Virus record (IMG/VR): IMGVR_UViG_3300042348_001285
Strand: one strand, 5' to 3'
Source of the DNA: a virus
Taxonomy: Duplodnaviria > Heunggongvirae > Uroviricota > Caudoviricetes
DNA: 64,000 nucleotides
Shown here: positions 4,994 through 15,733 of the stretch, one piece after another
Numbering within the stretch: the stretch's first letter is position 1
How the letters are laid out: every line of letters starts with the position of its first letter
The notes under the pieces: model-generated
Seen by the model: the letters and a program-made list of their open reading frames with translations, nothing else
What the model was told of the DNA's origin: nothing
The model's database searches: none
Translations under genes and position numbers: made by a program

Positions 4994-7900
4994 AGACTTA
5001 AGGTTCCTTCTTTATAGTCAGGCGGTTGGTAGGGGAAAGTAGTCCCAGTATACCAAGAGAGTTGGGGAACATCTGTATTGGAACTGGGGTTCTCCCATAC
5101 ATAAGTGATTTCCTGGTTAGAGTTGGTAAATCTCCCCGTATTACGTGGCACTAATGTTATTTGAGCTACGCCTAATTTAATCGAGGAGGTCTCCAGTCCA
5201 AATTGAGAGATAATTTCCTCTTCACACCGGTAAAAAGAGACGTACCTCAGTAGGTTATCGGCAAATTCTTCGTATCTGGCCGTATTGGTGACTGTCATGT
5301 TTGTCCAGTTGGTCACCGTTGTTTGAGGTGTGAATGCTCTCATTACCCTATAGATATTCCTACCATCTTCTGCTATAAGGGTGTCCTCTGCGTATTTGAC
5401 ATACTCCGGATTAAAATATGGGACGTATGCCCGGGGGTCAAATTCGTTTGTTCCAGCTTCTGAGGAGTCTATGAAAATACCATTTTTGTAGTAAATTGAA
5501 AAGTCAAATAAGGGGCTTACGCTAGATGTGGCAGTATAGGATTTTACCGAATTACCATTTCTAAAGTAGGTTCTGTCCCCCCTATAGAAGGTAAACATCC
5601 TGACAAATGTATTTATTTCCGTCAGCCGGGGGTAAAGAGAGGTTATTTGGATTTGGAAGCCACTACCAGTACCGCCCAAGTAACTATTATCTATAGTCAG
5701 GACATCGCCAATTGAGTACCCCCTTCCAAAATCAGATAACTCGTAGGAAATAATTGTATTCCCTGAGACTACCAAGTTAATAGATCCGTTGACCCCAACC
5801 CCATTGATTGGGTTGCTATATATTAAAGGTAGGTTAGTATAGGTACCGTTTCGGTAACCTGACCCCCCGTTTACCAAGTTGGTCGTCTTTATTCTGCCAG
5901 ATACGCTATTATTTACTAGGTCGTCTAATTGCGACCTTAGCTCGAATGAAGGTGCAAGGTTGATCACTGAGCCATCATTGATTAAGTCCTGAATAGATGA
6001 GCTGCTTGGTGTGAAGTACTTGGCGGCAATACAATAGGTAGGGGTCCCACCTGAAACTTCCCTGTATTCTAAATACTGCCCACATTTGAATCTAGGTTTG
6101 TATTTGTAAATGGGTAGCCCGCCATTGCCATCTAGTACGGACACTTCTCTTATAATGCCTTGCTTTATTAACTCGCTAAAGTAATCTACGGTTAGTGCCC
6201 CATTGGGTCCGTAAGTAAAAGGTGCAATTACATAGGCGTACTTATTGACAGCCCCTTTCGTTACGTCCACATAGTTATAATGGGGGTCAGAAACAGCATC
6301 CGGACCGCTCCCAACCTGTGGTGTATAAACCCAAGTTCCTGCTAAGTAGGACTGACCTTCAACTAGTTGATTGTAATTATTCGGCAAGCTAGAATTTAAA
6401 GCTGGTCCTATTTTATTTTCAGTCTGGGCCCCGGTAATGTCATTAGTAGAAGGGAATAAGATAAAATTCTGAGCTACCAGCCAAGCTAATCTTCCGACAG
6501 TAGTGGTAGGTAGGAACTCACCGTCTGAGTAGTCATACTCAACGATTTCTGGGTCTATTGTTGTCCCCAGTGAATATTGGTAAGAGTTATTTACGACCCA
6601 TGCAGAATAAGTCTTTGCTGAAGAAATTTTTCCAGCTACAAAAGCACTGGGGATATCTGCTGAAGATCCAATCACTATATTTTCAAGGACTACGAATAAT
6701 TGATTATTGAAGAACACAATGTCCCCCAAACTGTATCTACCGGCAGTGAGTAACTTTATTTGCTTTAAAGCAAGATTACCGTACACAGTTTGGTCGAATT
6801 TGTTCGTTGAATAGGGGCTATACGCTACTTCTACTGGGTAGTATGATGGGTTAGGGTTATTAACTACAATGAGATCATCACTGTTTAAAATGGTATTTAC
6901 GGGTTCAAAATCATATACATTAGTATAAATAGCAGCGTCTTTACTCAGAAGGACAGGGGTATTGTAAGCTGCGGAGTAGTTAATTTGAGGGTCTTTGAAC
7001 CTGCTGATAGAATCAAAAGTATTATAAAAAGCGGCATCAACATCACTTACGGCTGGGTTCGTATCAGTTGGGAAAACATTTCCAGGGGTCAATACTGTGG
7101 AGAGCCTATCCCTAAAATTCAAAGTTACAGGCTGATAATTAGACCCATAGATACCATTGGCATCAACTTCAAGAGTGATGTTATATTGAGTTTGACTTAG
7201 AGTAATGGGGTACAAGTGGGCTTGATTTTCAATAGGGATCGAAAAGTTAATTACATTCTGACCCCTTCTTATTTGGTCATCTGTTAATTCTATACCATTG
7301 GGCCCAAGCACAAAGAAAGAAACTTGTCCATTGGGCTTCGTAAAATCAGACAGATAATTATAGCCTAATCTACTACTTCTATTGGGTTGAACAGAAGTCA
7401 GAGTCCCTAAACCAAACATATCTATGAAGAAGTTCTCCCAGTCTGCCTGGCTAACGGGATTCCTGCGTCTGATTAGGGAGAAAAACCTTTCTTGGACTTG
7501 AGCATATGTTTCTACATCACTGCCTCCTACCGCAGGTTCTGGGTTAGTTGCTACGGTGCTAGCTTCCCCGAGGTCCGGGGGGCCGGTAATTGAATTAGCC
7601 GGGACATTATAGATGTTACCTACAAATTTAGAATAGACAGGGATTTCAACTTCGGTCTTACCGGCAGGTATTGTAACGCTGTACGAGCTTATATATTCAA
7701 ATCCTTGGCCGCCGGATAATTGGGGGTTGGATGTAAATACAGACCCGGATGGTACCGACAAGTCTGAATTTCTTGGTGCTATTGACAACCTAACCAAAGC
7801 TGTAGCAGGGGTACCTAGTCTCCTTAGGGCGCCTAAAAATGGGCCTATCCATTCGATGAGAATCTTGTTTGGTAGTTGATTAGCCCAAAATAAAAATTCA

Positions 7901-9128: not shown

Positions 9129-12100
9129 TCAGGACAAGATGTTGGTGATCATAGCTCCAGAACCGGTAAGACCAGATGCACCGAGGCCAACCAAGTTAAC
9201 CACACGTTCGATGGTGATTTCAGCACGCACGACACGGCGTTCGCGAATGTAGTACTCCAATTTGTTATCGTAAAGGCTCTTTATCCCTTGCTTCTGCATG
9301 TTTCTATGCAGTTCAGACTATATCATCGTTTTGTAAACAAAACGTCAGGCGCTCGTGGATTGTTCACCTGTTCTAGGCTACTTAATCTAGTCGTTGAACC
9401 TTGCTTTTATCCCTAAAAGCCTTGGCTGCTGATTGCCTTGTGTTTCAAGGAATTCACTCCTGAAACCGTCAGGTTTCCCAGCAATTCACCTAATTTCTTT
9501 TTATGTCAGACCCCAGTAGTTAAGGACGGACAGCGGGTGTTCCTGTGAGTTGATCATTTTTGTTAGCGTAAAGGTTATTTATCCTTCACTTCTTTACATT
9601 TCTGCAAAGATCAGACTATATCTTCTTCCTTGCCTTGTGTTAAAGCTAAGGAGTAGGGCGCTCGTGGAGTTTTCATCTGTTCTAGATTACTAACTCTAGT
9701 CGTTGAACGTTCGTTTTCTCCCGAAAACGCTTCGCTGCTGATTACCATAGCGTCAAACTTTCGTTTGAAGCCGTAGGCTTCCCAGCAATTCACCCCATTG
9801 ATCTGCGGATCAGGCAGATAATTTGACGTTACCGTCAAACCACGCATTCAACTCGTTTGAAAGAAACGATGTTATTAACATACGTGTCGATTATGTTATC
9901 GTAAGGCTCTTTATCCTTACTTCTGCATGTTTCCATGCAGTCCAGACTATATCATCTTATTGTTTCTTTTAGTTCGTATCACTGATTCCCTTATTTTAAC
10001 CTTTTGCTCCTCTGACATCTTGTCATTCCCGTTTTTTCTACGGGTTTCCCAAGCTCTTTTTGCAGCTTCCACTGCTTTGGGGGTCTTGGTTCCAGCTGGA
10101 CCACAGTTATAGGGCTTCCAGCCGGAGGCAATAAGCTTCTTTTTACTTTCACTTTGCTTCTTACGAGTTTCTTCGGAAGCAACAGGGTTTCTTTTGTACT
10201 GGTCTAAGAACCGGGTGGTTCTAATAGTTCCGGTACTATCCCTAAGCGTTCTACACACGGCCCAAGCATCTTTGTAGTGCCGGGTAGCTTTGTACAGAAG
10301 CAAGTGAGCTATAGCATGCTCTCTAGGAGTTAAAGGTACAAGGTTGACAGGGTGGTCCCACTTTTTATAGTGTTTAGGCAATATGTGATGCCTATGGAAC
10401 CCTTTCTTTTTACAAGTCCAGTTTCTTATAGACTTATAGTGAAGAACTAATTTAATATACCGTCTACCATAATGGTTATCGGGTATCCAACAATAAGGAA
10501 GGCTTTCGTGGAGATTTTCTATCAGGGTTAAGAGCATCTCTAGTCGTTGAACGTTTGCAAACAAGTTTTACCCTTTGTTTACACTTCGCTGCTGATTGCC
10601 CAATCTTAAGAAGTTTTTAACTATCACGATTACCCTTTCAGGTTGCGTTGTAGTCTCTTAAGCTCTAAGGGGTTTCCAGCAATTAACCTTCTTTTACTTG
10701 CGCTACACAGTTTCTTGTGAATGAAACAATGTTATTCAACGCAAAAGCAGGAGTCGCAGCATTAGCACCACCCGCAGGCATGATCGAATCAGAAGGGCCG
10801 TTGGGGCTGTAGAACAGGAGGATGCCATTGGCGGGGAAGACAGGCTGCAAGGAGCCGTCGTTGGCCAAATAACGCCCTTCAGCTACGCGCAGGCCACGCT
10901 CAAGACCGAAGTAGCGAGCGATGACATCTGTGTCGATGCTATTGGCGGAGGTGTATTTGATACGATCAAGGATCGCTTCGTTGGTCAGCAAGAGGTCGAA
11001 AACCGAAGTTCCAAGAACAGCGGAGTTCGGACGAATGCCGATCTGGTTGGCAACAGCACGCTTCAGAGTCAGGATGTCCTCAATGGGATTAGAGGTTGCA
11101 CCAGACCATGCGGCAGGGCCAGTGGCTGTGCCATAAGCGGTGTTGAAGGCGGTCCAGGTTGTAAAACCAAGACCAGTTTGTGAGCCAGGAGTCCCATTGT
11201 AGGGCTCGTATGGATTGTAGCTGCCAGTCACTGAAACAGCTTGAGCAACGGTGTACTCGTAGCTGTTCATTCATTATGTTATCGCGAGGGCTCTTTATCC
11301 CTTGCTTCTGCATGTTTCTATGCAGTTCAGACTATATCATCGTTTTGTAAACAAAACGTCAGGCGCTCGTGGATGGGTTATTATTTTCGGTATTCACCAT
11401 CTAGTCGTTGAACCTTTTGACTACAACTCTATTATAGCATAGAGTCCGAAATAGTCAACTTGGCTGCTGATTGCCTTGTGTTTCAGAGAAGCCACTCCTG
11501 AAACCGTCAGGGTTCCCAGCAATTCACCCAATTTTCTAAATGAGATTAATCTCATAGGGCCAATGTGTTTAGCCTAGACATCGCATTGCGAGTCTCGATG
11601 GCGCGTAGCATTTGTTAACTCAGCGGCTCTTTATCCACTGATTCATTACCTTGTCGTTGGTAATGTTCAGACTATATCATAGCATTGAAAAAGTTTTCCA
11701 GTCTTGGTCCTCGTCTGGTATCCACTTATTCCCCTCTGGACAGAGGGATTTAAGGTCTCCATTAAAGGCTTTGACGATATTTGACAAAGTTTGAGAGTTC
11801 GGGGTACCTGTAGCTTTGGCTAGCCTTAGGCAACCGCTACTTCCCACTTTTCTAGGGATAAATTGATAGTGAAAGTAAAGATAGTCTGCAATCTTCCAAA
11901 GGTCTCGGGTTTTACTTGACGCATTGTTATTATCCCAAGGTTTACAGACTAAGGATGGGTTATTTAGTCTCCCTCTCCCCCCGCATCCAACGGCAAACCT
12001 GTAATCTTCAGTAACGTAGGGTAATCCAGTTTTTCCCTTATTGTGGGGAACGGACCTACTGTTCATGAAATTTTTCCAAATACTTGGAAGATTTGTGGCT

Positions 12101-15100
12101 ATGGATGTTTTATTTTTCCCCCTACCAAAATGGTCTAAAAATCTCTTTAAGGAATAAGATTTAAACAGACCTGACTTCACCAGTAAAAGATGAAGTATAA
12201 AGTGTTCCCTAAATGTAACCCCAACCGTCCAAATTACCAAATGGCTTCTCCACCCATCCGGCCAAATTTCTTTGGGTACAGGGTGATGGCACTCATATTG
12301 TTCTGGAAGTTGGCATCTTTTCTCAAATTTGTCGATTAAACTCCAATACCACTTTTCATATTTATTATGATAGTGGCACTCAATGCCCCGGGCGCTCGTG
12401 GATGGGTTATTATTTTCGGTATTCACCATCTAGTCGTTGAACCTTTTGACTACATTCCCATTATAGCATGGGGACCGAAATAGTCAACTTGGCTGCTGAT
12501 TGCCCACGCGGGGGTTCCAGCAATTCACCCGGTTTATAGTGGACCTACGCTGCGATCGAAATCGTCCGTAAAAAATAATCCACTTGTGCAGGCAAAATGT
12601 TGTTACCGTACGGGCTCTTTATCCCATACTTCTCCATGTTTCCATGGAGTTCAGACTATATCTTTGCCCCACCGTTAAGCACGGTAAGACATCAGGCGCT
12701 CGTGGAGTTTTCATCTGTTCTAGATTACTAACTCTAGTCGTTGGACCTTGCTTTTATCCCTAAAAGCCTTGGCTGCTGATTGCCTCTTTTGCGTAGCAAA
12801 AGTAAGGTGTCCCAGCAATTCACCCAATTTTTAGTGACCTTTGTCACAAGGAAGGCCCTTACAACCTTCCCCTGCGTTTTCAATAACCTCTTCCAAGGTT
12901 GTTATCACAAAGGCTCTTTATCCTTTGCTTCTGTAAATTTACCATCTTTACAGTTCAGACTATATCACCGTCTATACCCTCCTATAAAGGTTAGTCAGAC
13001 GTAAGGCGCTCGTGGAGTTTTCATCTGTTCTAGATTACTAACTCTAGTCGTTGAACGTTCGTTTTCTCCCGAAAACGCTTCGCTGCTGATTGGCCATTAA
13101 GTTGGAGGCTTTCCAGCAATTCACCCTATTATTCTTACCGCGCTAACTAGGCAACGGCAAGGCCCAAAGATTTAGGCAATTCCCATGCGACCACTTCCTG
13201 CTCCAGAGCGTAGGGCTCAGAGTCGTAACGGCTTTGGACGTAGGGGATGTTTGTCATTTGTTATCGCAAAGGCTCTTTATCCCTTGCTTCTACATGTTTC
13301 CATGTAGGTCAGACTATATCTTTGCCTTACATTCTTATGTAAGACATCAGGCGCTCGTGGAGTTTTCATCTGTTCTAGATTACTAACTCTAGTCGTTGAA
13401 CCTTGCTTTTATCCCTAAAAGCCTTGGCTGCTGATTACCATAGCATCAAACTTTCGTTTGAAGCCGTAGGCTTCCCAGCAATTCACCCAATTTATTTACG
13501 GCACAAACTAATTACCGTAAGCACGACGGAAGTCGTTAATAGCAACACCATGTTATCGTAGAGACTCTTTATTCCCTACCTCTGCATGTTTCTATGCAGT
13601 TCAGACTATATCATCGTTTTGTAAACAAAACGTCGGGCGCTCGTGGACGAGTTATTGTTGTCGAAACTCATCGTCTAGTCGTTGAACCTTTCCACTACAG
13701 AAATCATAGTGATTCCTCGACGCAGTAGACTTGGCTGCTGATTTCCCTCGCCTTTACGTTAGGGGTTCCCAGCAATTCACCCAATTTTACAACAGCAAGC
13801 TATTTACTGTTCCTTACCGAATCTCAATATTCTACCAGCTCGGGTAGGTGTGTCCACAACTGGTGCGATAAACACTTGTTACCGTGAGAGAATTTATCAC
13901 TCACTTCTTACAGTTTCCTGTAAGTTCAGACTATATCATCATCTTCCTTAAACGTTTTAACAACGGTTTTTAGAGATTGCCAAGTGTTACCTAATTTTGT
14001 TATCCTATGGAGCCTTCTGGCACCACACTTTCCGTTTTCTGCCCAGGCTCTATGCAAGACATCTAAGTTAGACCAAACTTCTTTATCTGCGCGAGGGTTA
14101 TTAGCCCCCGTTCGATCTCTGTCTGGGTTATTAGCTGCTTGTATTGCAAACTGGATGGTAGGATTACTTATGGCTCTGTCTCTAAGTTTTTGTTTTGACT
14201 CTTCACTCCAAGCCCTATTTTTACATCTCTCTGCGCGAGCAGTTCTTTCTTCGTCAGACATTGGGACTTTCCTGGGCCTAGCTTTTCCTTTATTGGACTT
14301 GCTAATTTTGACTTTAGTTTCTTCGGAGTGCCCGTGGTGAGCCACCTTTTCGTAAACCCGTGAGTTCTTTGAAGACTTTTTGAAAGAGTTTATAGCTTTA
14401 CCCAGTTTCTTCACGGAACTGAAAGCTAAAGCTAATAAACAATGGGATATATAGTGCTCTCTGTAGGTAAGTTTAACTAGGTTGGCTTCATCGTTTCCAC
14501 CCTTCATGCACTTGGGCACTATGTGGTGAATATGGAAACCACCCTCTTTGACCAAACCTCTAGAGGGGCGAGAGTTAATAAACTTTACATACCGTTGGTA
14601 ATGTAAGGGAGAGTCGGGCGCTCGTGGAAAGATTATTCTTGGGTCAGTCACTTTCTAGTCGTTGAACCTTTTTACTCATTGTTACCCCTATTATATCGGG
14701 TAACTGCCCAAAGTAAACTCGGCTGCTGATTGCCTTGTGTTCCAGAAAAGTAGATTCTGAAACCGTCAGGTATCCCAGCAATTCACCCGATTTTCAATCA
14801 GAGTTGCCTCTGAAGGGAACCTTATCGATTCGCAATGTTGGTAGACGGTAGCATGAAACCTTGCGCGAGGGTGGTGAGACATTTGTTAACGTAGAGGCTC
14901 TTTATCCCCTACCTCTCTTTGTTTCCAAAGAGTTCAGACTATATCACCGTTTTGTAAACAAAACGCCCGGCGCTCGTGGAGTTTTCATCTGTTCTAGATT
15001 ACTAACTCTAGTCGTTGAACCTTGCTTTTATCCCTAAAAGCCTTGGCTGCTGATTACCATAGCGTCAAACTTTCGTTTGAAGCCGTAGGCTTCCCAGCAA

Positions 15101-15733
15101 TTCACCGGATTTTCTTTGTTAAAAACAAAGCCACTCCTTTAAATGGGCAATATGTTATCGCAAAGGCTCTTTATCCCTTGCTTCTACATGTTTCCATGTA
15201 GGCCAGACTATATCATCATCCTTTAACTCCCATGCTGAGGAGTCAAGGAGCTGGGCGCTCGTGGATTGTTCACCTGTTCTAGGCTACTTAATCTAGTCGT
15301 TGAACGTTCCGTCAATCCCTTGACGGCTTCGCTGCTGATTGCCTCTTTTGCGTAGCAAAAGTAAGGTGTCCCAGCAATTCACCCAGTTTTCTGCCATCAT
15401 TAAAATGACAGGGACCCTAATTAATCCACACCTGCGTAGGTCTGTTGTAGCATTATGTTATCGTAAAGGCTCTTTATCCTTCACTTCTTTACATTTCTGC
15501 AAAGATCAGACTATATCATCATCTTTGCCTAGGCAAAGAGTCGGGCGCTCGTGTCAGCTTCATTACTGTTCTAGTAGTATGCTGTTAGTCGTTGGACCTT
15601 GCTTTTATCCCTAAAAGCCTTGGCTGCTGATTACCATAGCATCAAACTTTCGTTTGAAGCCGTAGGGTTCCCAGCAATTCACCCAATTTTCATCCCAAGG
15701 TTACCCTTGAGCGGAACCGCCATGATTCATCAT
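9129..15733 (-). CDS. Major capsid protein, 351 aa, 14 exons interrupted by 13 group I introns
   Basis: Exons in transcription order: 15733-15725, 15450-15424, 15147-15143, 14879-14828, 13872-13806, 13545-13514, 13254-13174, 12893-12864, 12592-12578, 11608-11571, 11271-10739, 9887-9882, 9554-9523, 9257-9129. They sum to 1056 nt (352 codons, no internal stop): MMNLQQTYAGVDPILTTLAQGFMLPSTNIANFIAPVVDTPTRAGRILRFGKEQFAINDFRRAYGTNIPYVQSRYDSEPYALEQEVVAWELPEEVIENAGEGPAQVDLRAIETRNAMSRLMNSYE...ATPAFAYTYQLTGTPAVRPEYYIRERRVVRAEITIERVVNLVGLGASGLTGSGAMITNILS. It follows the protease and decoration genes, and its size fits a capsid protein. Family call by resemblance and position, not by search. Confidence 0.9.
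9258..9522 (-). mobile_element. Group I intron 13 (265 nt, no ORF)
   Basis: P/Q/R/S present. P1 CCU/GGG; P10 AGUA/UACU. Splicing restores AVRP|EYY. Confidence 0.88.
9555..9881 (-). mobile_element. Group I intron 12 (327 nt, no ORF)
   Basis: P/Q/R/S present. P1 CACGU/GCGUG uses the 6-nt exon; P10 UCAACUC/GAGUUGA. Confidence 0.92.
9888..10738 (-). mobile_element. Group I intron 11 (851 nt) with HNH ORF in P8
   Basis: P/Q/R/S present. P1 UUGCGU/GCGCAA; P10 ACAC/GUGU. Confidence 0.92.
9947..10537 (-). CDS. Intron-encoded HNH homing endonuclease with NUMOD3-like repeats
   Basis: FHRHHILPKHYKKWDHPVNLVPLTPREHAIAHLLL, SEETRKKQSES and MSEEQKVKIRES. Likely start is ATG 10537 just after R (the track starts at 10564). 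Confidence 0.85.
   Translation of the reverse strand: MLLTLIENLHESLPYCWIPDNHYGRRYIKLVLHYKSIRNWTCKKKGFHRHHILPKHYKKWDHPVNLVPLTPREHAIAHLLLYKATRHYKDAWAVCRTLRDSTGTIRTTRFLDQYKRNPVASEETRKKQSESKKKLIASGWKPYNCGPAGTKTPKAVEAAKRAWETRRKNGNDKMSEEQKVKIRESVIRTKRNNKMI
11272..11570 (-). mobile_element. Group I intron 10 (299 nt, no ORF)
   Basis: P/Q/R/S present. P1 GGCU/GGCC; P10 AAUG/CAUU. Confidence 0.9.
11609..12577 (-). mobile_element. Group I intron 9 (969 nt) with HNH ORF in P8
   Basis: P/Q/R/S present. P1 GUGGAU/GUCCAC; P10 CUACGC/GCGUAG. Confidence 0.92.
11677..12429 (-). CDS. Intron-encoded HNH-like homing endonuclease
   Basis: YECHHPVPKEIW...VTFREHFILHLLL (HNH-like). The C-terminal segment resembles that of the intron 4 ORF. 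ATG immediately follows the R element. Confidence 0.8.
   Translation of the reverse strand: MVNTENNNPSTSARGIECHYHNKYEKWYWSLIDKFEKRCQLPEQYECHHPVPKEIWPDGWRSHLVIWTVGVTFREHFILHLLLVKSGLFKSYSLKRFLDHFGRGKNKTSIATNLPSIWKNFMNSRSVPHNKGKTGLPYVTEDYRFAVGCGGRGRLNNPSLVCKPWDNNNASSKTRDLWKIADYLYFHYQFIPRKVGSSGCLRLAKATGTPNSQTLSNIVKAFNGDLKSLCPEGNKWIPDEDQDWKTFSML
12593..12863 (-). mobile_element. Group I intron 8 (271 nt, no ORF)
   Basis: P/Q/R/S present. P1 GGAAGGU/GCCUUCC; P10 CCU/AGG. Confidence 0.92.
12894..13173 (-). mobile_element. Group I intron 7 (280 nt, no ORF)
   Basis: P/Q/R/S present. P1 GCCU/GGGC; P10 GAAGA/UCUUU. Confidence 0.9.
13255..13513 (-). mobile_element. Group I intron 6 (259 nt, no ORF)
   Basis: P/Q/R/S present. 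P1 UUACGGU/GCCGUAA; P10 ACAAAC/GUUUGU. Confidence 0.92.
13546..13805 (-). mobile_element. Group I intron 5 (260 nt, no ORF)
   Basis: P/Q/R/S present. P1 AACAGU/GCUGUU; P10 GCUA/UAGC. Confidence 0.9.
13873..14827 (-). mobile_element. Group I intron 4 (955 nt) with HNH ORF in P8
   Basis: P/Q/R/S present. P1 GAAU/GUUC; P10 UUUAUCG/CGAUAAG. Confidence 0.9.
13926..14651 (-). CDS. Intron-encoded HNH homing endonuclease with NUMOD3-like motif
   Basis: FHIHHIVPKCMKGGNDEANLVKLTYREHYISH (HNH) and HSEETKVKISKSNKGK (NUMOD3-like). The stop codon lies in the intron S element. Confidence 0.88.
   Translation of the reverse strand: MTDPRIIFPRAPDSPLHYQRYVKFINSRPSRGLVKEGGFHIHHIVPKCMKGGNDEANLVKLTYREHYISHCLLALAFSSVKKLGKAINSFKKSSKNSRVYEKVAHHGHSEETKVKISKSNKGKARPRKVPMSDEERTARAERCKNRAWSEESKQKLRDRAISNPTIQFAIQAANNPDRDRTGANNPRADKEVWSNLDVLHRAWAENGKCGARRLHRITKLGNTWQSLKTVVKTFKEDDDIV
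14880..15142 (-). mobile_element. Group I intron 3 (263 nt, no ORF)
   Basis: P/Q/R/S present. P1 CCAU/GUGG uses the 5-nt exon; P10 UCU/GGA. Confidence 0.88.
15148..15423 (-). mobile_element. Group I intron 2 (276 nt, no ORF)
   Basis: P/Q/R/S present. P1 GGAU/GUCC; P10 CC/GG; terminal G. Confidence 0.88.
15451..15724 (-). mobile_element. Group I intron 1 (274 nt, no ORF)
   Basis: Core elements on the minus strand: P GAATTGCTGGGA, Q AATCAGCAG, R GTCCAACGACTA, S GATATAGTC. Terminal G. P1 is exon GAAU with IGS GUUC. P10 is weak. Confidence 0.85.

Follow-up and report, generated by a model that had tools for sequence, protein, structure and literature searches.

The stretch of viral DNA analysed here, called the window below, spans 64,000 nucleotides and is part of a large cyanophage-like genome. 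On its minus strand lies a major capsid protein gene in which 13 group I cores were found between positions 15733 and 9129. Joining its 14 exons yields a 1056-nt coding sequence (CDS) whose product is equal in length to that of an intron-free relative (L005) and differs from it at four amino acids. The nearest cultured relative found for the gene is Synechococcus phage S-CBWM1, with 59% identity between its capsid protein and the product of exon 11. Intron sites are given as CDS positions; in the record nearest to the window the site-895 intron is present and the site-889 intron is absent. The exons, introns and guide sequences concerned are the following.

9129..15733, minus strand: major capsid protein gene, 14 exons and 13 group I introns, 351 aa
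15143..15147, minus strand: 5-nt micro-exon 3 (CCCAT), flanked by introns 2 and 3; P10/P1 overlap smaller than at micro-exon 12
10739..11271, minus strand: exon 11, 533 nt, with a PF03864 match in its product
9888..10738, minus strand: group I intron 11, CDS site 889, 851 nt, omega-G at 9888
10705..10709, minus strand: intron 11 P10 guide UGUGU, pairing with micro-exon nt 1-5
10697..10703, minus strand: intron 11 P1 guide GCGCAAG, 7 bp with the end of exon 11, U·G at the splice site
9947..10564, minus strand: HNH-type homing endonuclease ORF in intron 11 (phrog_655, E 1e-18)
9941..9942, minus strand: intron 11 P9.0 (GA), pairing with UC at 9890-9889; compensated G-C pair
9882..9887, minus strand: 6-nt micro-exon 12 (ACACGT), CDS nt 890-895, parts of Tyr-Thr-Tyr codons
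9555..9881, minus strand: group I intron 12, CDS site 895, 327 nt, no ORF
9848..9854, minus strand: intron 12 P10 guide GAGUUGA, pairing with exon 13 nt 2-8
9841..9847, minus strand: intron 12 P1 guide GCGUG (9845-9841) plus extension AU, pairing with micro-exon nt 2-6 and intron nt 1-2
9523..9554, minus strand: exon 13, 32 nt

The original prediction placed a six-base exon, ACACGT, at 9882-9887 and read it as parts of the Tyr-Thr-Tyr codons, and both claims hold in the joined CDS. Among 501 alternative sets of U|...G junctions with the right length, only the ACACGT set restored the conserved protein with 20/20 identity to the reference, which was the intron-free consensus of 20 residues around PAFAYTYQL; an 11-nt exon and all other alternative junctions fitted worse. 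The exon (9887-9882) is bounded by the omega-G of intron 11 at 9888 and by A9881, the first base of intron 12. The 3' splice site G9888 is independently marked, because the first P9.0 pair of intron 11 is a compensated G-C pair (9942/9889) found in this intron only, while it is A-U in 11 introns and G·U in intron 2. The identical double-intron arrangement is present in 16 further contigs, which represent three intron-11 lineages, and the micro-exon is therefore no artefact of assembly. Three intron-free contigs (L180-L182), which show no mismatch to the spliced sequence of L027, confirm the site-895 junction. At the level of DNA sequence, the 6-nt exon between introns 11 and 12 is confirmed.

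Intron 12 scores 81.9 bits against RF00028 and exceeds the gathering score. Intron 11 matches in two pieces around its ORF (43.3 and 22.7 bits), each below the gathering score. P, Q, R and S motifs are found in both introns, and the helices at both splice sites are those of group I introns. In intron 11, the 5' exon base U10739 pairs with G10703 within a P1 of 7 bp, whereas P1 of intron 12 has 5+2 bp and a U9882·G9845 pair. The 3' ends carry a terminal omega-G (G9888 and G9555, respectively), each with a P9.0 of 2 bp, and the P10 helices measure 5 bp in intron 11 and 7 bp in intron 12. P1 is the only helix common to all 8 intron 12 alleles folded, and the P10 guide of this intron shows a compensatory change in the L013 group. 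In the P10 guide of intron 11, GUGU is constant in all alleles and the fifth base is variable. P3 and P8 differ between the two introns, as do the guides. The endonuclease ORF of intron 11 encodes 205 aa from TTG 10564 or 196 aa from ATG 10537, and its product falls in a 23-member protein cluster. In one contig (L207), the 5' half of intron 12 is fused to the 3' end of the site-356 intron; this is either an assembly chimera or recombination between near-identical intron modules.

Two guides had been proposed to compete for the exon, GUGU of intron 11 and GCGUG of intron 12, and both lie where claimed (10708-10705 and 9845-9841). Starting the first at 10709 (UGUGU) adds a fifth, G·U pair. In P10 of intron 11, micro-exon nt 1-5 pair with 10709-10705, and in P1 of intron 12, nt 2-6 pair with 9845-9841. 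Both helices use nt 2-5 and are mutually exclusive, with an overlap slightly larger than had been proposed. This mutual exclusion means sequential splicing, in either order.

We compared alleles carrying neither, one or both introns. In a first set of 63 sequences spanning both sites, 44 had neither intron, 17 had intron 12 only, one had intron 11 only and the window had both. Look-ups via the endonuclease and a truncated ORF added the 16 double-intron contigs mentioned above as well as more contigs with intron 11 only, which is found alone in L035, L198, L210 and L189. The three intron-11 lineages among the doubles are 77-140 differences apart, and each has its own intron-12 allele. Intron 11 of two doubles (L197/L199) is identical over all 851 nt to that of the single-intron locus L035. 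The guides of both introns are unchanged between single and double alleles, and comparing singles with doubles revealed no co-adaptation of guides between introns 11 and 12. In the intron-12-free allele ACACA all 5 bp of the intron 11 P10 are perfect; in the window the last one is a wobble, because every intron-12 carrier has ACG. Given the identical guides in singles and doubles and the unadapted P10 of intron 11, neither intron is adapted to its neighbour. In the doubles, the upstream exon codons resemble those of intron-11 carriers and the downstream codons those of intron-12 carriers, which suggests that recombination within the 6 nt may have made the doubles. At site 889 of another locus (L195) sits a distinct intron whose endonuclease is related; it has no tag mimic of the kind described below, and the locus contains further very short exons. 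A metagenome scan for the junction pattern gave nothing beyond the L035 contig, and pattern matches in L082-L084 were rejected as unrelated DNA. These natural alleles (neither, either or both introns, with an identical intron 11) constitute a test system for two ribozymes sharing an exon, and the series makes the importance of P10 easy to measure.

From the shared exon, the original prediction concluded that splicing order is constrained or that a folding switch exists between the introns. Neither an obligatory order nor an evolved switch held up, and what remains is only a predicted kinetic bias with intron 12 leaving first. The introns lie side by side, neither interrupting the other, and each is intact and found alone. 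P1 of intron 12 and P10 of intron 11 are identical in precursor and spliced contexts. Since removal of either intron leaves P1 and P10 of the other unaltered, no order is written in the sequence. An obligatory order, with ligation by intron 11 possible only once intron 12 is out, or an evolved folding switch could be read from the four shared bases, from the single base (A1) between the omega-G of intron 11 and the P1 helix of intron 12, from a plausible steric conflict of the two cores and from the dominance of this P1 in the local fold; in addition, P10 covaries in intron 12 alleles and so matters in the family. We nevertheless consider it unlikely, as the departure of a neighbour creates or loses no pairing, single and double alleles share the same guides, group I splicing does not strictly depend on P10 (PMC7877785), a 1-nt exon elsewhere yields both intermediates (PMC5436844) and the 2-bp P9.0 of intron 11 includes a G-C pair. 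A candidate switch, a 7-bp hairpin in which the last bases of intron 11 pair across the exon with the first bases of intron 12, was rejected: it is worth -3.1 kcal/mol (z -0.36), is displaced once P1 of intron 12 is transcribed and is broken in the L196/L197 alleles.

Nearest-neighbour energies, which ignore docking, Mg2+, ribosomes and chaperones, were -6.7 kcal/mol for the 7 bp of P1 of intron 12, -13.2 kcal/mol for its whole hairpin and -2.8 kcal/mol for P10 of intron 11. The calculated occupancy of nt 2-6 by the P1 hairpin was 0.96-0.98. The predicted bias to intron 12 first arises because its P1 is local and strong, whereas P10 of intron 11 is long-range and weak by the energy given. Spliced, half-spliced or skipped forms of the 889/895 double were found in none of the loci examined, and the splicing order is thus computed rather than observed.

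In our model, the two introns are independent mobile group I elements that sit 6 nt from each other and would splice sequentially. P1 of intron 12 would fold as a local hairpin about 45 nt after transcription of the exon and capture nt 2-6. Intron 11 would carry out step 1, and on the favoured route its step 2 would wait for splicing of intron 12 and release of the ligated exons. On a minor route, intron 11 could perform step 2 on its omega-G and 2-bp P9.0, dispensing with P10; both routes would give the same mRNA. Translation of exon 11 would be expected to melt P1 of intron 11, since the stop codon of this intron lies past the guide, and intron 12 may be shielded from ribosomes until intron 11 is gone. 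We judge it probable that there is a kinetic bias to intron 12 first, free of any obligation, and that the overlap is a by-product rather than an evolved switch.

P10 aids group I splicing efficiency (PMC7877785) and forms transiently, in step 2 only (PMC10020454). This transience, a weak or nearly absent P10 (1-3 bp) in several introns of the capsid gene and the frequency of doubles, which occur in three lineages, would all fit two introns that splice independently, in any order and at single-intron rates, the overlap having no measurable effect. We find this doubtful: once transcribed, P1 of intron 12 holds nt 2-6 almost fully, the ACAC/GUGU core is constant in all intron-11 alleles, and in a Tetrahymena system P10 pairing is a major driver of splicing fitness (PMC7877785).

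Another consequence of the arrangement could be that a substantial fraction of transcripts loses the micro-exon and encodes a 349-aa capsid protein, in frame but lacking two residues. The last three bases of both 5' exons are CGU, and the intron 12 guide can form 6 bp (-2.5 kcal/mol) with the terminal bases of exon 11. The cognate pairing is stronger, however (-4.6 kcal/mol, or -6.7 kcal/mol with the extension), no skipped junction was seen in any locus examined, and the two-residue deletion is absent from all homologous proteins read over this segment. Tandem group I introns are known to skip exons by using a distal 5' site or by forming a hybrid ribozyme (PMC10136302; phage SIOphi, PMC11878797). 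In a tandem Tetrahymena model, differing P3/P8 and guides suppress skipping (PMC10136302); introns 11 and 12 differ in both, and their P3 and P8 disfavour a hybrid core. Taken together, we regard skipping on this scale as very improbable, and the sequential model with its kinetic bias is the one retained.

Very short exons are not confined to this junction. Exon 3, at 5 nt, is shorter than ACACGT, and the introns flanking it occur singly in 12 and 6 loci and together in 5. Micro-exons of 5, 8, 10 and 15 nt recur in the capsid gene family. The 8-nt exon of the 11-intron L006 gene likewise has overlapping footprints, with P10 on nt 1-5 and P1 on nt 4-8. Two intron-free contigs, L005 and L178, match the spliced L006 gene without mismatch and contain the 8-nt exon, and L005 also matches 3661 nt of the upstream flank of L006 exactly. 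These two contigs and L180-L182 are probably transcripts, as judged by identity and not by sample metadata. If they are, the overlapped 8-nt micro-exon is accurately retained, because the intron-free contigs match spliced L006.

Several other forms were observed in the family. In L019, introns are kept at sites 9, 36 and 75 while those at 93, 318 and 895 are gone and the exons are identical to L027; it is possibly a partly spliced RNA from which the downstream introns left first. The 277-nt intron at CDS site 93 (L006, L001, L002, L003 and L010) ends in A and cannot be slid to end in G. It is exactly removed in L005/L178 and retained in L183, which lacks the downstream introns; in its last base it resembles the omega-A intron of Coxiella. 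At CDS site 75 (L016, L018-L023, L032), a 215-nt insertion lacks the core motifs of the other introns.

By itself, the micro-exon is an extreme yet precedented case. Staphylococcus phage Twort orf142 reportedly contains three group I introns and a 23-nt exon and shows exon skipping between tandem introns. It resembles the window in having tandem group I introns around a short exon of a phage structural gene, with a risk of skipping, but the window gene has 13 introns and exons of 5 and 6 nt. In placozoan mitochondrial cox1, a 1-nt micro-exon separates two group IB introns, and both intermediates have been sequenced (PMC5436844). Both there and in the window the micro-exon is far shorter than the P10 and P1 footprints together, is needed for conserved residues and was made by a second intron inserting beside the first. 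In contrast to the phylum-fixed 1-nt exon of cox1, the window exon is 6 nt long, polymorphic, located in a phage late gene and known from DNA. Mini-exons under about 4 codons are described as regular between self-splicing introns of intron-rich mitochondrial genes (PMC10352661), and an intron-rich capsid gene with several group I introns as present in Zeta crAss-like phages (PMC7886860); the intron density of the window's capsid gene is higher (13 introns per 1056 coding nt), and the sections consulted contain no treatment of overlapping P10/P1 footprints.

A second feature of the two introns lies in the codons following their 5' splice sites. In-frame read-through would append to the capsid protein a copy of the N-terminal part of the cyanobacterial tmRNA tag, as follows.

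10683..10739, minus strand: intron 11 in-frame read-through, L-NNIVSFTR-NCVAQVKEG-stop; 20.8 bits with the tag profile (PSSM), second best in the window
9835..9879, minus strand: intron 12 in-frame read-through, VNNIVSFKRVECVV-stop, 14 residues; 25.2 bits, best in the window
12545..12577, minus strand: for comparison, the tail of intron 9, which closes with ISIAA-stop; those of introns 7 and 10 close with LAVA-stop and TLAL-stop

The profile was derived from the tags of 30 tmRNAs sampled from across the class with no reference to the motif, and ANNI[VI]xFxR is present in 26/30 of these cyanobacterial tags. Over the 127,948 8-mers of the window, the next unrelated one scores 2.4 bits, and the motif occurs in the six frames only at 10736 and 9876. 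For 13 introns with 10 offsets each, the probability that the six-residue motif arises by chance is about 4e-6. Compared with the cyanobacterial tag ANNIVSFKRVAVAA-stop (ARAGORN; L256 Snowella, L286 Crocosphaera), the intron 12 tail has the same length and nine consecutive identities. Both introns have the NNI[VI]xFxR of the host tag. Their last residues, CVV in intron 12 and KEG in intron 11, differ from the Ala-Ala or Val-Ala of the host, and the C-terminal protease signal is absent or degenerate in both.

Selection on the peptide is indicated by varying loop folds and low DNA identity to host tmRNAs. The loop fold differs among alleles while P1 is constant and the peptide is kept, and only 18-21 of 27 nt are identical to the best host tmRNA although the six conserved residues are. 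At these six positions, 14 alleles show 6 synonymous changes against 1 conservative change (P 0.002-0.007), a test that is partly circular as four alleles were found by the motif; alleles found otherwise give 5 to 1. Tag positions 6 and 8 vary freely in the intron alleles, as they do in host tags. The guide overlaps the tail codons in both introns, and AACA of the intron 11 motif also pairs with the P10 guide.

Resemblance to the cyanobacterial SsrA tag (ANNIVxFxR...VAA/AVA) therefore extends to the N-terminal motif, the length (intron 12) and the C-terminal place on a truncated protein, but not to the last residues or to the way in which the tag is attached. It is encoded in cis by the intron rather than added by trans-translation, and no tmRNA gene was found in the window, which makes it a mimic and not a member of the tmRNA system. 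An in-frame stop just past the 5' splice site is known from bacterial and phage group I introns (PMC3073962). As in those introns, ribosomes on unspliced RNA would be halted before the catalytic core; in contrast to them, the stop in introns 11 and 12 lies 15-19 codons in, past the guide, and is preceded by the host tag motif.

Tails of related kinds occur elsewhere. Endings of the Ala-Ala or Val-Ala type were found in introns 7 (AVA) and 9 (IAA) of the window. At 13147-13173, 12545-12577 and 11552-11572 of the window and at CDS sites 150, 281 and 303 of relatives, the tails end in LAVA, ISIAA, TLAL, PYAA, ASAA and AVAA, and some tails of this type vary synonymously between alleles. Capsid-family introns at aa 50-118 mostly have AA-, AVA- or LAL-type tails, and in introns located upstream of aa 32 a stop codon mostly follows within 1-3 codons. 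Intron 13, at aa 309, carries no tag and halts translation at once, directly after Pro (VRP-stop, 9520-9525). Pro-stop ends can trigger tmRNA tagging in E. coli, and this end might substitute for a tag.

Two scans of viral contigs with narrow motif patterns found tag-bearing introns only in the capsid family of the window and in one further contig, L375. There, a Synechococcus phage S-EIVl-type capsid gene (5042-5677, minus strand) without significant similarity to the capsid gene of the window contains two group I introns 23 nt apart; read from the splice site on, one gives K-NNIVAFSRKAIAA-stop and the other V-NNIVPFARR. The tail of its intron A is complete and terminates in Ala-Ala (KAIAA-stop), and the other L375 intron ends in ATA.

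The simplest reading is that these tails may act as degrons. On a message retaining intron 11 or 12, translation would run on into intron sequence, and each of the two possible intermediates would yield a fragment of 313 or 314 aa, made up of about 85% of the capsid protein plus the tag with its NNIVxFxR copy. Such fragments could disturb assembly, and the tag would send them to host proteases, protecting capsid assembly while splicing lags. In Synechocystis, ssrA-type tags reduce protein levels (PMC2860132). The CVV and KEG ends, the immediate stop of intron 13 and the untagged site-889 intron of L195 speak against such a role. Because single-intron alleles carry the tag too, it is a property of the introns and not an answer to the micro-exon. 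Alternatively, the resemblance could go back to a tmRNA fragment captured in the past or simply reflect RNA structure, and leave protein turnover unaffected; the CVV and KEG termini, the pairing of AACA, the untagged intron 13 and a possible common ancestry of introns 11 and 12 in the tag segment would suit this explanation. It seems improbable to us, given that identical conserved residues are encoded by divergent DNA, that the peptide persists across different loop folds and that the motif stands in the host reading frame of four introns in two unrelated genes, in splice phases 0, 1 and 2. The idea that the P1 loops of introns in cyanophage capsid genes have evolved to encode a copy of the host tag in cis, by which unspliced and half-spliced products are destroyed, has in our view a somewhat better than even chance of being correct. 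Our literature search, which covered only a minority of subscription papers, returned nothing relevant on introns with ssrA-like tags or an NNIVxFxR mimic.

In conclusion, the tag mimic, if it works, matters more than the micro-exon. If the degron reading is true, the NNIVxFxR half of the cyanobacterial tag would itself be a recognition signal, and the introns, which keep it where Ala-Ala is lost, would provide an independent evolutionary read-out of the recognised tmRNA-tag residues. Selfish introns would then cancel their own cost at the protein level, a behaviour of which we found no description, and this form of quality control would make 13 introns, and splicing queued around exons of 5-8 nt, easier to tolerate for a structural gene that is heavily expressed.
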